This document shows positions 58,929 to 63,874 of a DNA stretch of 64,000 bases, piece after piece. Source of the stretch: an uncultured delta proteobacterium. GTDB lineage: Bacteria; Desulfobacterota; Desulfobacteria; Desulfobacterales; QNYZ01. Both the position numbers and the translations under genes were made by a program. The notes below the pieces were generated by a model. That model worked only from the letters and a program-made list of their open reading frames with translations, had not been told where the DNA came from and did no database searches. The stretch covers positions 38,251 to 102,250 of the forward strand of contig CAWANO010000012.1 of NCBI GenBank assembly GCA_963783425.1. Direction: 5' to 3'. Numbering within the stretch: the stretch's first letter is position 1; every line of letters starts with the position of its first letter.

Positions 58929-59011
58929 GTGGTCCTGTTCGTAAAAACAGAGACGTAATGAGGGCGCCAATGCGCCGGGTTGACAAGGCGCGAAAAATAA
59001 AGAATATCGGG
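58929..59011 (+). mobile_element. Truncated left-half copy of the 161-bp fold-back element
   Basis: Preceded by CTTA; GTGGTCCTGTTCGTAAAAAC...AATATCGGG aligns to 60914-60996. Confidence 0.85.
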
Positions 59012-59063
59012 GTTGGCCGAAATAGAGGTGTCGGCCGGCGTGGTTATCTGGCTCACTTTTTTC

Positions 59064-59146
59064 AACAAGGTCGATTACGACGCAGATATTGTGGCCGAGG
59101 AAGCGGCAGGAGGAAAAAACTGAGTCAGTGGATTGCCGAAACACTA
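59064..59146 (+). pseudogene. Possible HicB-like antitoxin remnant
   Basis: KVDYDAD joined to AAGGK(N), a frameshift, then LSQWIAETL; resembles the HicB N-terminal strand and C-terminal RHH helix. Confidence 0.3.
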
Positions 59147-59282
59147 GTGGGTTCCAGTGGTCCCGGCTTGGCGATTCATACTCGATATGAGACCCTGGCA
59201 TTACACAGCTACCGATAACTGACAGATGATATCAACGGAAAAATTTTTAAACTGACTGTTGCCATAGAGATAAATAGCCCGT

Positions 59283-59489
59283 TTAACCAACGGCCTGTAT
59301 AGCCTCTTGGACATCTATGGGAAGTTGCACACGTACAAAATAAGATTCGGGATAAAGGTAGTCTTCGCCTGATTCATCAATGACCCTTAAATAGCCCTCT
59401 TTAGATGCACCTTCGTCAGGAAGTATTTGATATACTTTTCTTTTTTCCAAATCCTCACAATCTCTATTTTCGATACAAATTACGTACAT
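59283..59489 (-). CDS. Small acidic hypothetical protein, gene 2 of a two-gene module
   Basis: 68 aa; ICI.N...LE.RKVY...RVIDESGEDYLYP; low GC; starts 4 bp after the upstream stop. Confidence 0.8.
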   Translation of the reverse strand: MYVICIENRDCEDLEKRKVYQILPDEGASKEGYLRVIDESGEDYLYPESYFVRVQLPIDVQEAIQAVG

Positions 59490-59493
59490 TTTT

Positions 59494-59727
59494 CTAATCC
59501 ATAAAGCGTTTAATTTTCATTTTCTTTCGGCCGATCCCGTGGCTCTCGTACCAGTGGAGCTCCGCTTTGAGGATTCGGCCATTTTGAAGTCTTACTTTGG
59601 CCACCCCTTTGAGTTTACGCCACCTACCTTCGCCGTAATGTTTTCGAATCCGCATTATATCTCGGATTTTACCACCTACCGCAATGGTTTCTATATTTTC
59701 GATGTCATCGATTATTTCGAAATACAT
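59494..59727 (-). CDS. Small basic hypothetical protein, gene 1 of a two-gene module
   Basis: 77 aa; IETIAVG, YG.GRWRKLKG, AELHWYE.HGIG; low GC. Confidence 0.82.
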   Translation of the reverse strand: MYFEIIDDIENIETIAVGGKIRDIMRIRKHYGEGRWRKLKGVAKVRLQNGRILKAELHWYESHGIGRKKMKIKRFMD

Positions 59728-59972
59728 GATTAAGTATATGGAATCAACCTGTTAATTTCAAGGAGGGTCTTTCAAGATGATATGAATTGGCAGTGATTTC
59801 TTGAACCGTAAGGATTTTAATCAACACCCACAGCAGATCAATGACGCCGGTGACCCCAAATAGCATAGGCGCGAATCAACCTCTGATAATTGAAAAAATA
59901 TTTTTTACAAAATTGATGATCGTATGTTACCGTCTACCATGCGGCGTTCCATCCGTATGCCGGAGATTATTT

Positions 59973-60827
59973 TTAACCCAACAGCCTGATGATATTCAAA
60001 CGGAATACCTTGCATTTTTCCGAGTGATTAAAACCCACCTTGTCAAGCATGCTGTCGATTAGGCATATCTCCTTTTTATGACTAAACCAGGGCCAGTCCG
60101 TACCAAACAAGATGTGATCGGGTCCGTGCTCTTCCACAAGATCACAAAACTCTATGGTTGAGAGCGTATGGGCCGCATTTGAGGTATCCAGGTAGAGGTT
60201 GGGGCGGGCCGTTAAATGGCGGCGAATCTCATCGTACGGTGCGTCAAGGCCTCCCATATGGGCCCCTATAAAATTGATGCCCGGATAGCGGTCTGCCAGG
60301 TCGGCCAAGTGTTTGGGCGTGGTGTTGAATTCAGGAGGGGTGCCGAAATGGCGGTCGGCGGTGCGCAAGGTGTCCAAAACAACGGCAAAGGGCGCATCCG
60401 TCTTCTCATTGGCCGATTCGACGGCACGAAACATCCTGGCGGCGCTTGCCCCCTTTAACTCAAAGCCTTGGGAGAAAGAGCACAGTTTGACCAAGCGAAT
60501 GCGGTGTTGCCGTAGGTAGGCAACCTCGCGGTCCATATCGGGGTCGGCCGGATGCAGCGTACCGGCTGTTTTGATGAAGGGATAGGCCGTAGCGGTATTG
60601 ATGCAGGACCGATTGGTTCTTCTTACGTTAGAAACGCTGGCGGTGGGGAGCATCAGCGCGCCTTCGACACCGGCGCCCGCCAGTTCCGCTTTCAACTTTC
60701 CCGCGGAGGTTCGTTTTTCAGCCCCCTTGGTTTGTAATCTCAAACGCTGCACCATCCCCAATTTTTGCTGGACATTGCGGATGATTGTATCCGGGAAGAG
60801 ATGGACATGGCAGTCGAATATTTTCAT
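59973..60827 (-). CDS. Amidohydrolase-2 family metallohydrolase
   Basis: DCHVH, GTLHP, IGAHMGG, YLDTS, ILFGTDWPW. Confidence 0.88.
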   Translation of the reverse strand: MKIFDCHVHLFPDTIIRNVQQKLGMVQRLRLQTKGAEKRTSAGKLKAELAGAGVEGALMLPTASVSNVRRTNRSCINTATAYPFIKTAGTLHPADPDMDREVAYLRQHRIRLVKLCSFSQGFELKGASAARMFRAVESANEKTDAPFAVVLDTLRTADRHFGTPPEFNTTPKHLADLADRYPGINFIGAHMGGLDAPYDEIRRHLTARPNLYLDTSNAAHTLSTIEFCDLVEEHGPDHILFGTDWPWFSHKKEICLIDSMLDKVGFNHSEKCKVFRLNIIRLLG

Positions 60828-60913
60828 TATGCACCGGGCACTCTTATCACTCACTGTTGGGGTTCACATAAGAGGATATTGATGAAATGTGTCAAAATAG
60901 CCCTTCACCCTTA

Positions 60914-61074
60914 GTGCTCCTGTTCGTAAAAACGGTGACGTAATGAGGGCGTCAAGGCGCCGGGCTGACAAGGCGCGGAAAATAAGCAATATCGGGAATA
61001 TTGCGTTTTTTCGCAACGCCGTTAGCCCGGATGGATTGGCGGCCGAATGTCATCGTATTTGCGAATAGGTGCAC
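60914..61074 (+). mobile_element. 161-bp fold-back MITE-like element, copy A
   Basis: GTGC...GCAC ends, ~26-bp imperfect terminal IRs, flanked by TTA/TTA in C-TTA-G context. Confidence 0.88.
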
Positions 61075-61123
61075 TTAGTAAACCGTTCAGAACAACGTTG
61101 GCGTCAGACGTTCACTCGCCAAA

Positions 61124-61155
61124 ATCCCCCTTGATCCCCCTTTACAAAGGGGGAG
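61124..61155 (+). repeat. REP-like C-tract plus hairpin motif
   Basis: ATCCCCCTTGA then TCCCCCTTT-AC-AAAGGGGGA. Confidence 0.65.
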
Positions 61156-61317
61156 TTAGCATTTTGCCGCTTGTTTGCGGTCAGCAGCATGGCACTGGCA
61201 TGTCCAGCCATTGAGATTCCGAAATCAGCCTTGAGCTACCGATTGCCTCCGAGTGATCAAGCCGAATCTTCGTCTCGGCCACAACAAATGAATTTCCCCG
61301 TGGCAACAACAGACGAA

Positions 61318-61347
61318 TTCCACCCTTGAGGGGGGCTAGGGGGGTGT
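61318..61347 (-). repeat. Degenerate inverted copy of the C-tract plus hairpin motif
   Basis: Minus strand ACACCCCCCTAGCCCCCCTCAAGGGTGGAA. Confidence 0.5.
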
Positions 61348-61459
61348 TTTAGTTTCCAGTTGTCAGCTTCAACCATTGTTCGATTCAACCCCACCAATCC
61401 ATCGATTCAGGCTCAACAATACGCCTTCCATATTTCTTTTCACATCGACGTCCAGAAAC

Positions 61460-61820
61460 CTTCTGCCCGAAAAGCTGTCGAGCACCATGGCCAGCACGGT
61501 CACCCCTGGCGATAGCTCCATTTGAGTGTCCACGCTGGTCTCTACGGTGTCGACCAGGCCGATTCGCTTTGCAAATTGTTTGACAACAGGTAAATGTCAT
61601 ACGTCGGTGAAGGTAAGGTCCTTAGTGCATATATTCGCAAATACGATGACATTCGGCCGCCAATCCATCCGGGCTAACGGCGTTGCGAAAAAACGCAATA
61701 TTCCCGATATTGCTTATTTTCCGCGCCTTGTCAGCCCGGCGCCTTGACGCCCTCATTACGTCATCGTTTTTACGAACAGCAGCACTTAGTGGAAACACGC
61801 TCTTTAGGGGTATGAGTCAT
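61460..61820 (-). pseudogene. IS1634-like transposase N-terminal fragment interrupted by MITE copy B
   Basis: With the element removed it reads MTHTPKERVSTKDLTFTDV*HLPVVKQFAKRIGLVDTVETSVDTQMELSPGVTVLAMVLDSFSGR; internal stop, truncated; family by recall. Confidence 0.65.
61625..61785 (-). mobile_element. 161-bp fold-back MITE-like element, copy B (inverted)
   Basis: Reverse complement of copy A with 4 differences by manual alignment; flanked by TTA/TTA. Confidence 0.9.
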
Positions 61821-61843: not shown

Positions 61844-62179
61844 TTAACTCACGATTGTTCTGATTTTGGCCAAAGCTTCAATAACAACATCTCTTGGTGC
61901 TTTTTCGGCAAAATGGATGCCCCTCGAATTAAAATTGATCATTTTAACTTGATGGCAGAGGACAGCCCCGGAAATCTTCTTTCCTGTCAAAGCAACTTCA
62001 AAGCCATGGCCACGTACCCTGCTGGTGATCGGCGCGACCATGGCCAGCATGATTGTTTTATTGAAGGGGTATTTTGAGAGAACAATGGCCGGTCTTTTCC
62101 CCATCTGTTCAATCCTGGCGGCAGGGTTAAAATCAGTCCAAACCAGATCACCACGTCTCGGAATATATTTCCTGGCCAT
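61844..62179 (-). CDS. PemK/MazF-family toxin
   Basis: YIPRRGDLVWTDFNP...EQMGKRPAIVLS...FN, APITS; TAATG coupling with the antitoxin stop. Confidence 0.9.
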   Translation of the reverse strand: MARKYIPRRGDLVWTDFNPAARIEQMGKRPAIVLSKYPFNKTIMLAMVAPITSRVRGHGFEVALTGKKISGAVLCHQVKMINFNSRGIHFAEKAPRDVVIEALAKIRTIVS

Positions 62180-62340
62180 TACCAAGCTTCCCTGCTAACC
62201 GGCGGATCATTGAGCCAATGGCGGTCTTCCTGGCTGATTTCCATTTTATCAGAATCGCATTGGTCAAGAAGTTCATCAAGGCTATATTCAATATTTCTCT
62301 TACAAGGGGAAATAATGATTTTTCCGTCAACAGATTCAAT
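62179..62340 (-). pseudogene. MazE/AbrB-type antitoxin, 5'-truncated by IS66
   Basis: IESVDGKIIISPCKRNIEYSLDELLDQCD...WLNDPPVSREAW*; no start codon; abuts the IS end at 62341. Confidence 0.85.
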
Positions 62341-63874
62341 GTACCTATTCAGGGGGTTCGATCATCCGCGATAACCCGCTGAAATCACAGTAAATCCTGG
62401 TTGTTTTGTAACCACCTGAAATAATTGAAAAAACCGCTAGATTTTCCGTTTTAACTATGTTATGCTTCCATCATGGAAGCCAAAAGACCACTGTCGGACC
62501 TCGATTGGGCGCTCACGCCACAGGCGGTAAAGCAGTATATTGTTGAGCTGGAAAATATCGTCCGCCAGCTTGCGCAACGACATGAGGCACTGGAAAAGCG
62601 CACCGACACACTCGAGATCCGCTTGAACCAGAATTCGCAAAACTCAAGCAAACCACCTTCATCGGATGGCCCGTTTAAAAAGCCCAAGCGCAAACGCAAA
62701 AAGGGTAAACGAAAACGCGGCGGTCAAAAGGGCCATAAAGGACACCGCCAACAGATGCTCGCGCCAACCGCGGTCAAAAATCTGCTGCCTAACAGGTGTC
62801 AGTGCGGCCAGCTGTTATTGGATCGCAAAAGCATCCTGCCGTATTACACCCACCAGCATATCGAGTTGCCCGAGATAAAGATGGATGTTACGCATTATAT
62901 TTTACACAAGGGCAGCTGCAACAGTTGCGGTAGAACTAAGGCTCGGTGCGAGGCAATTTTGCGGTGGCTACGGTCCGCGGCTATCGGCGGTAATCGCGAG
63001 CTGTCAGGCTCCACGGCGCAGCGATTGACGGTTCAGGATTTTTGCAATCGGTGTTGGGTGTGCCCATCTCACAGGTGGTATTCAGCGCATCATTGACGGG
63101 TGTCGGGAGCATTGAGCGATCATACGAAATTGGTAAAAGAGAAAAGGGCGGTAAATGGGGTGGATGAAATTGGGTGAGCGGGTAAGCTTAAGTGGTTATG
63201 GACGATGGTAAATGAAGCGGTGTCGTTTTTCATGATCCATAAAAACCGCTCGAAACAGGCCTTTGAGGAGCTGATTGCCGACTGGAAGGGCATTCTCATC
63301 AGCGACAACTACGGCGTATATGTCAATTGGGTCGATAAACGCCAAACCTGTCTTGCCCATCTCATCCGAAGGGCAAAGGCTCTGGCGGAAAGAAGTGATG
63401 AGTCCATTGGGCGTTTTGGGCAATCCATTCTAAAGGAGCTGCAACTGCTGTGTCATTGGGCCAGAAAGCCACCAACCCAACAAGAATGGACCGACTTTTA
63501 TTCTCGGCTCCTTGTGTTGCTGATGCTCTACGAAAATGCCGATAATGATGCCGGCCGCATGGCACGCTCGATTGCCAAGCAGATGGAGTCGCTGTGGCTG
63601 TTTGTCGATCAGCAGGGTGTGGAACCAACAAACAACCGCTCCGAACGAGCATTGCGCTTTGCCGTTCTGTGGCGCAAACGCAGCAATGGAACCCGCAGTG
63701 ACAAGGGAGATCGTTGGGTGGAGCGAATCCTTTCCTTAAAACAGACCTGTCGCATGAGATCGCTGCCGGTCTTTCCGATCCTGGTAAGTGCCATTGATGC
63801 TTTTTTCAAAGAACAAGAACCTGATATGACTTGGATCACGGCTAATCGTTAACGGGATACCCCTGAATACTTAC
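62341..63874 (+). mobile_element. IS66-family insertion sequence (single-ORF type, 1534 bp)
   Basis: Terminal IRs GTACCTATTCAGGGG / CCCCTGAATACTTAC (13/15 match); no matching flanking duplication. Confidence 0.88.
62473..63852 (+). pseudogene. IS66 transposase with frameshifts at ~62930-63200
   Basis: NSQNSSKPPSSD, GGQKGHKG, Zn-finger cysteines, ISDNY, QTCLAHLIR, EPTNNRSERALR, split across frames. Confidence 0.88.

Follow-up and report, generated by a model that had tools for sequence, protein, structure and literature searches.

The DNA considered here is a 64,000-nucleotide stretch of the genome of an uncultured delta proteobacterium of the order Desulfobacterales (assembly GCA_963783425.1, contig CAWANO010000012.1, positions 38,251 to 102,250 of the forward strand), hereafter the window. 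Between an amidohydrolase gene and a MazF/PemK-like gene, the window contains two full-length copies of a 161-bp repeat, designated A and B and inverted relative to each other, with a half copy that retains the left arm only located further to the left (Table 1). The repeat is a transposable element of the miniature inverted-repeat type (a MITE), and it and the hairpin into which one of its strands folds are the subject of this report. A preliminary description, made from the sequence of the window, had reported the two inverted copies with four differences and the half copy, and all three are confirmed, copies A and B being 97.5% identical (4 differing positions over 161 nt). The half copy has 89% identity to the left half of copy A and its end point is the central loop; the covariance model R1, described below, gives a weak full-model match over this region (58929-59072, 29.4 bits). 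Element positions are counted from the left end of copy A, and the orientation of copy A, which is that of the better-folding strand, is referred to as the top strand.

In copy A, the element begins with GTGC, ends with GCAC and lies between C-TTA and TTA-G, with copy B, and the half copy on its left side, flanked in the equivalent way, so that the starts and ends given in the preliminary description agree with our reading of the flanks. Terminal inverted repeats are present, with GTGCTCCTGTTCGTAAAAAC at the left end pairing with GTATTTGCGAATAGGTGCAC at the right end, and the element end sequence beside the target triplet, TWA (TTA or TAA), is GTGSTCCTGTTCGTAAAAAC. The element is short and non-coding; its sole open frames are of 40-41 amino acids, and the start of those frames is absent from the 158-bp sister subfamily introduced below. 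Its conserved core is laid out as GGCGCC..CAAGGCGCG, the central hairpin, GCAACGC, an unpaired GGATGNAT and GGCG.

Table 1. Features of the window, in window positions, with the evidence for each.
Feature	Position	Strand	Evidence or remark
MITE copy A, 161 bp	60914..61074	+	covariance model R1, 172.7 bits
MITE copy B, 161 bp, inverted relative to A, 4 differences	61625..61785	-	covariance model R1, 163.8 bits
Truncated copy, left arm only, preceded by C-TTA	58929..59011	+	83 nt
Copy A, left target-site duplication TTA, preceded by C	60911..60913	.	flank reading and family statistics
Copy A, right target-site duplication TTA, followed by G	61075..61077	.	flank reading and metagenome contig exits at 61075-61079
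Copy B, flanking TTA	61622..61624	.	flank reading
Copy B, flanking TTA	61786..61788	.	flank reading
Conserved core, element positions ~43-128	60956..61041	+	relatives from other families of the order are 75% identical; alignment A1; cross-phylum pattern scan
Central hairpin GCAATAT-CGGGA-ATATTGC	60986..61004	+	covariation between subfamilies
IS1634-like transposase N-terminus remnant (DUF4277), interrupted by copy B	61372..61620	-	20.6 bits against a cut-off of 25.4, E = 6e-4
MazF/PemK-like gene	61844-62185		
IS66 transposase, broken: DUF6444 + zf-IS66 frame, then DDE_Tnp_IS66 frame	62473-63852		
Amidohydrolase	59973-60854		
Two small adjacent frames, 68 and 77 aa	59283-59727	-	no Pfam match; putative toxin-antitoxin-like pair according to the preliminary description

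A genome-wide blastn search (E<1e-10), suggested in the preliminary description, returned 56 matches in the source genome (G000; 4.09 Mb in 19 contigs, designated C1, C2 and so on, 94.5% complete). The matches are distributed over 15 of the 19 contigs, and 53 are full length. Of these 53, 28 are ≥98% identical to copy A, which indicates a recent burst of amplification. TWA is present at both flanks of 46 full-length copies, the triplet being identical in 40, and the complete C-TWA...TWA-G context surrounds 42. Since CTWAG holds just 2.4% of all TWA sites in this genome, the element strongly prefers this target. Insertion with a 3-bp duplication is supported directly by the copy at C1:1365-1525, for which there is a paralogous empty locus, with flanks 98.6-99.3% identical, that has a single TTTAG where the filled site has CTTA, the MITE and TTAG. 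Empty alleles of the copy A and copy B sites were not found, and no metagenome contig skips either copy. In contigs from sediment metagenomes, many differing flanks join the element precisely at 60909-60913 and 61075-61079, which mark the same element boundaries. The 161-bp repeat is a gene-less mobile element that inserts at CTTAG or CTAAG and duplicates the central TTA or TAA, in line with the mobile family targeting CTNAG that had been proposed. Its copies are mostly intergenic, in repeat-rich stretches of the genome; with this distribution and with copies on 15 contigs, the proposed role in cassette shuffling, or link to toxin-antitoxin genes, receives no support.

As RNA, copy A folds end to end into a structure with 64 pairs and a predicted energy of -89.5 kcal/mol (z = -10.45), and 0 of 200 shuffled sequences folds as well, consistent with the end-to-end palindrome around GCAATAT-CGGGA-ATATTGC noticed at the outset. 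Within the terminal 26 positions there are G.U pairs at positions 9, 14 and 22 and unpaired positions at 5 and 18, the same three G.U among five non-Watson-Crick positions as first counted. The complement of copy A reaches only -56.5 kcal/mol. Conservation of the fold was evaluated in an alignment, A1, of 71 elements from four subfamilies, namely 12 from the source genome, 34 of the 158-bp type, 20 with GTGC-type ends from other genomes and 5 from a further genome, G271. The A1 consensus fold has 44 pairs, in 34 of which there are pair-keeping changes at both sides. Pairing is retained in 93.5% of the alignment cells, against 78.2% with partners shuffled among sequences, and 0 of 500 shuffles reaches any of the five measures; with partners moved by one to three columns, pairing is ≤45%. 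Double changes are present in 9, 3, 5 and 4 pairs of internal helices 3 to 6, respectively, and the central hairpin occurs, by lineage, as GCAATAT/ATATTGC, GGAATAT/ATATTCC, GGCCTAT/ATAGGCC, GAATAC/GTATTC and GCATAC/GTATGC.

The fold is also a property of one strand. For the A1 consensus the folding energy is -38.5 on the top strand against -9.1 on the bottom one. With RNA parameters, 70 of the 71 sequences are more stable as the top strand, and with DNA parameters all 71 are. When the two arms of each element were aligned in a strand-neutral manner, with Watson-Crick scoring only, top-strand G.T mismatches exceeded A.C mismatches in three subfamilies (268:62, 207:82 and 111:49). The G.U pair at columns 46-122 is kept in 63 of the 71 sequences.

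The core extends far beyond the order. A pattern based on conserved core positions, GGCGCC-N7-CAAGGCGNG...CAACNC...GGATG, which recovers 28 of the 71 sequences aligned in A1, was used to scan one genome per species and identified at least 122 loci; far more copies exist. As judged from record titles, the matches listed come from Acidobacteriota (mostly Vicinamibacterales), Gemmatimonadota, Myxococcota, Desulfobacterales and other Thermodesulfobacteriota, including Desulfosarcina variabilis (locus L155), Gammaproteobacteria, Elusimicrobiota, Latescibacterota and Planctomycetota. The covariance model R1, built from A1, was run on 100 of these loci and, among the matches listed, gave a full-length match in most, the elements being ~160 nt long with GC contents of 0.47 to 0.76. 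Of the 86 full-length elements from other phyla among these, 85 fold better on the same strand, with G.T and A.C mismatches at 331:197 overall. Taken with the covariation in A1 (0/500 shuffles) and the 70 of 71 relatives that fold better on the top strand, this upholds the earlier proposal that a strand-specific hairpin is retained as a single strand. The hairpin is kept by compensatory changes and conserved G.U pairs, on one strand only, in several subfamilies and phyla, and the group of ~160-bp hairpin MITEs to which the 161-bp element belongs is very widespread.

The ends of these elements are more diverse than the core. Among the matches listed, a TWA duplication flanks 23 of the 86 elements and a TA duplication flanks 29, of which 24 lie in CTAG; the other 34 are ambiguous by the rule used. 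A 2-bp TA duplication in CTAG is the pattern left by IS630. The ~80-nt core is present in at least eight phyla with TWA-type as well as TA-type ends. The elements with the TA duplication, found among loci L131-L252, have the same core and length with other ends, for example GCAGCCCGTGGTG, GTGTCCCGTC and GTCCCCTGGAA, and are flanked by CTA on the left and TAG on the right.

That one strand folds well might be an unselected consequence of descent from one asymmetric ancestor, or of strand-biased mutation combined with ordinary pressure for the two ends to remain alike. All of the sequences do share ancestry, the terminal repeats must co-vary in any case because one transposase binds both ends, the G.U excess is missing in a few lineages, and the top strand is G-rich, with a GC skew of +0.06 to +0.21. 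On the top strand A is, however, also above T, a poor fit to a simple C-to-T decay of one strand, and compensatory changes are found in internal helices 3 to 6 as well as at the ends. The asymmetry persists, moreover, at ~70% identity and over GC contents from 0.47 to 0.76, and in the source genome the copies have no orientation bias relative to the strand defined by GC skew (28:18) that could drive strand-biased mutation. We consider an unselected origin of the fold unlikely.

It is also conceivable that the core is an RNA element that serves the host, as a terminator, an mRNA stabiliser or a small RNA, and has been spread by the MITE. Other bacterial MITEs, such as ERIC and Correia, act in RNA; a T run follows the central hairpin in copy A; and a related copy, differing at 4 positions, is present on a single metatranscriptome contig, although this contig shows neither transcription nor its strand. 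The T run is, however, lost in other subfamilies, and in the source genome there is no orientation bias relative to genes, with 25 sense and 20 antisense copies at 3′-ends and 17:19 at 5′-ends, values obtained from long open frames only and so from rough gene calls. No Rfam model is matched at its gathering score, the best being a plant miRNA model, MIR839, at 24.3 bits against 200. The lack of orientation bias and of an Rfam match argues against a role tied to the host context of each copy and fits a constraint in the element's own life cycle. A core spread as a host-serving RNA thus appears quite improbable and, more generally, the fold is less likely to serve the host genes beside each copy; a part in transposition is our best guess.

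The identity of the mobiliser was sought in relatives of the source genome, in 401 genomes sampled from the order and representing 174 genera (designated G###, with loci designated L###). A sister subfamily of 158 bp, carried by 110 of the 401 genomes and 57 of the 174 genera, has a core 72-78% identical to that of the 161-bp element over element positions ~36-128, and the same TWA duplication and CTWAG context. Its ends, GGGTTCGCG...CGCGAGCCC, differ from those of the source-genome copies. Copies with the GTGSTCCTGTTCG ends of the source genome are present as multiple copies in at least seven genomes (G077, G378, G239, G206, G271, G359 and G389), and an additional subfamily is present in G271. 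The ends of the sister subfamily point to a candidate transposase. PF07592 (DDE_Tnp_ISAZ013), the transposase domain of the ISAzo13 family, was found in 87 of the 401 genomes, with frames of 401-415 aa among the matches. An element of 1504 bp in G077, with a frameshifted PF07592 transposase, is flanked by cTTA and TTAg, and its right end agrees with that of the 158-bp MITE at ~27 of 32 positions, counted by hand from the printed ends. In G346, the right end of a PF07592 element, with TAA-G beyond it, shares 24 of 25 positions with the right end of the 158-bp MITE.

Other ISAzo13 copies of the order have TWA followed by ends resembling GGnGCTGTnnCGnAAATAAC, and the GTGCTCCTGTTCGTAAAAAC end of the source-genome copies resembles these. 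As in the MITEs, the ISAzo13 copies have TWA flanks and terminal repeats of the GGG/GGn...AAATAA type. In PMC10045372, ISAzo13 and its eukaryotic relative Zator are stated to make 3-bp duplications, and Zator is paired with ISAzo13 in PMC5718144; the 3-bp duplication made by ISAzo13 is also that made by the source-genome copies. From the near-identity of the sister-subfamily right end to those of two ISAzo13 copies, the TWA duplication and the 3-bp duplications of ISAzo13 and Zator, the superfamily is classed, with the caveats given below, as ISAzo13-derived, and the mobiliser is most likely, from these similarities, an ISAzo13-family DDE transposase rather than one of the IS5/Harbinger or REPIN/RAYT type. 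The preliminary description had left the mobiliser open. The match of the sister-subfamily ends to ISAzo13 alters that in part. It had also reckoned that a match to the ends of a catalogued insertion sequence, with no covariation, would refute its reading; this outcome was obtained only by half, as an end match was found, and covariation was found with it.

The MITEs and ISAzo13 also differ. The element in the window is 161 bp long and has no transposase gene, whereas ISAzo13 is ~1.3-1.5 kb, and the hairpin core of the MITE is missing from full-length ISAzo13. In 33 ISAzo13 loci, R1 detected no core inside the ISAzo13 elements, the sole two matches there being located in neighbouring small elements. 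It follows that the core belongs to the small elements as a module of theirs and was not left over from the parent.

Several candidate parents were considered and rejected. A 1788-bp element (C2:453396-455183) gave an apparent end match that is internal and by chance, its true ends being GAGCCTGTCCGA. IS630-like remnants of the source genome have different ends, and the copies in this genome duplicate 3 bp, not the 2-bp TA of the IS630 type. Partial matches in relatives are internally deleted or truncated MITEs, and in one case a MITE with an IS66 fragment inside. The latter, L054 (G378:C18:112000-114300), is split between element positions 45 and 46 by ~1 kb that contains a partial, IS66-like transposase on the opposite strand. 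Truncated copies (L075, L076, L078 and the half copy at 58929-59011 of the window) tend to share end points, located either after GGTGACGTA or precisely at the central loop.

Movement by an IS5-group transposase, as an IS5-family or PIF/Harbinger-type (Tourist-like) MITE, was also evaluated. TTA/TAA duplications and a CTTAG-like target are typical of PIF/Harbinger and of some IS5 groups, and the source genome has 32 matches to DDE_Tnp_1 (PF01609). PF13340 (the IS427 and IS1031 groups of IS5) and PF13359 (DDE_Tnp_4, Harbinger-like) are, however, absent from the source genome, where PF13586 was not among the families searched, and neither its PF01609 elements nor any of its 43 repeated units, insertion sequences included, has MITE-like ends. 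There is similarly no end match among the IS5-like candidates, the DDE_Tnp_1_2 and DDE_Tnp_4 elements, of five near-complete relatives, and it is ISAzo13 copies that the sister-subfamily ends match instead. Tourist-like MITEs resemble the 161-bp element in their TWA duplication and CTTAG-like target but are eukaryotic and moved by another transposase superfamily. An IS5 or Harbinger mobiliser is accordingly very unlikely. The remaining candidate, movement as single-stranded DNA by a Y1 (HUH) transposase such as RAYT, in the manner of REPIN-like or IS200/IS605-like elements, would account for the strand-specific fold, and the source genome has ten Y1_Tnp matches, but none of the ten lies within a few kb of any copy when coordinates are compared, the 3-bp target duplication is true and has an empty site, and the terminal inverted repeats, in the sister subfamily, are common to a DDE insertion sequence, so that it can be dismissed as exceedingly improbable.

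As a whole, the data are best explained by a non-autonomous, cut-and-paste MITE moved in trans by an ISAzo13 DDE transposase and having a core, foldable on one strand, that acts in cis, a reading to which we assign a probability of about 0.78. An ISAzo13-family transposase would act in trans and cut the target with a 3-nt stagger. The folded single strand, either DNA exposed in replication or a read-through transcript, would then act in cis for the element's own spread, which is our preferred interpretation of its conservation. By drawing the two ends towards each other, or by attracting a conserved host factor, such a fold might help a gene-less element to compete for a transposase made elsewhere.

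Several observations weigh against this reading, with respect both to the mobiliser and to the fold. No PF07592 match is present in the source genome, at 94.5% completeness, although an ISAzo13 gene may be missing from the assembly, having been left unassembled, lost or located on another replicon. A search of the source genome with 20-mers of both ends (≤5 mismatches) found no longer element with the same ends, only a 24-bp fragment beside the copy at C1:1079808. The GTGC-type ends of the source genome have only a motif in common with ISAzo13 copies such as L107, and are tied to ISAzo13 by that motif, the shared core and the shared duplication, with no matching autonomous copy. The 158-bp subfamily (110 genomes) and PF07592 (87 genomes) do not co-occur among the 401 genomes, with an overlap of 21 by hand count against ~24 expected by chance, most of these assemblies being fragmented and liable to drop insertion sequences. 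Six of the 46 copies with TWA at both ends have TTA at one flank and TAA at the other, which could result from inter-copy recombination or from the central base of the 3-nt overhang having escaped repair. With respect to the fold, the A1 sequences are related and the shuffle test consequently overstates significance. The excess of G.T over A.C mismatches is absent from three copies in G239 (4:4, 2:3 and 2:3) and from five Gemmatimonadota elements (14:17).

A more far-reaching interpretation of the core can be advanced only tentatively, and at somewhat less than even odds. The core, with its conserved G.U pairs and unpaired GGATGNAT, would be a functional, structured single-strand module of RNA or DNA, carried in at least eight phyla by MITEs whose ends are of two kinds or more (TWA-type, resembling ISAzo13, and TA-type in CTAG). 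It would owe its retention to promoting the spread of gene-less elements, for example as a cis-acting transposition enhancer or as a binding site for a universal host factor, and would constitute a new class of nucleic-acid element, as opposed to a residue of insertion-sequence DNA. Decay does not readily explain a core that is missing from full-length elements, conserved over phyla and a wide GC range, foldable on one strand and combined with two kinds of ends, and this points to a cis-acting structure that aids the propagation of non-autonomous elements. If so, it would bear on the way in which MITEs out-compete the elements they derive from. Among insertion-sequence families, ISAzo13 has been little studied, and MITEs of the ISAzo13 type appear to be very abundant in sediment and soil bacteria. 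There is also a practical cost, as the family breaks assemblies and litters the intergenic regions of many metagenome-assembled genomes.

In its general build, the 161-bp element is an ordinary kind of MITE; what goes beyond this is a core kept foldable on one strand in many phyla. Correia, ERIC and RUP make TA duplications. According to reviews, Correia (Neisseria), ERIC (Enterobacteriaceae), RUP (Streptococcus), Nezha (cyanobacteria) and Chunjie (Geobacter) are small, non-coding and present in many copies, with terminal inverted repeats, flanking direct repeats and a stable predicted RNA fold, all of which the 161-bp element has, and the direct repeats of Chunjie differ in being of 9 bp. The legend for one published element gives a central palindrome, GRCGTAGCGCTGCTACGCC, that is unlike GCAATAT-CGGGA-ATATTGC. 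Like REPIN/RAYT systems, the MITE group consists of short, abundant palindromic repeats with long evolutionary persistence. REPINs are not known to have either a target duplication or DDE-type terminal inverted repeats, and because the 161-bp element has both it is not a REPIN; the REPIN-like label attached to it earlier must be dropped. In the literature searched, which did not extend to subscription journals or ISfinder, neither MITEs derived from ISAzo13 nor this core, or any other shared between phyla, were found described. A search combining MITE, Desulfobacter, hairpin and target-site duplication retrieved only plant and nematode work.

In the window, copy B interrupts a remnant of an IS1634-like transposase, DUF4277 being the N-terminal domain of such enzymes. 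When copy B and one TTA were removed in a script, the minus-strand frame crossed the junction, and to this extent the interrupted transposase frame of the preliminary description stands; the frame is, however, only a short, decayed DUF4277 remnant that scores below the cut-off and has an in-frame TGA a few codons downstream. The broken IS66 unit further to the right recurs in the source genome (C12:100698-102125).

Other repeats are also present around the copies. Directly to the right of copy A there is a second repeat family (61086-61225 and 61155-61316), and sequences that match the flank to the right of copy A are found on C10, C6, C4 and C2. Metagenome contigs pass straight from 61154 to 61317, with 162 nt left out, and from 61147 to 61395, and this repeat is possibly a second small mobile element. 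Elsewhere in the source genome several MITE copies adjoin other short repeat families that have dozens of genomic copies, as at the left flank of C1:445739 and the flanks of C1:1065497, C1:1079644 and C10:295209. The source genome carries several distinct families of small repeats, and these families cluster.

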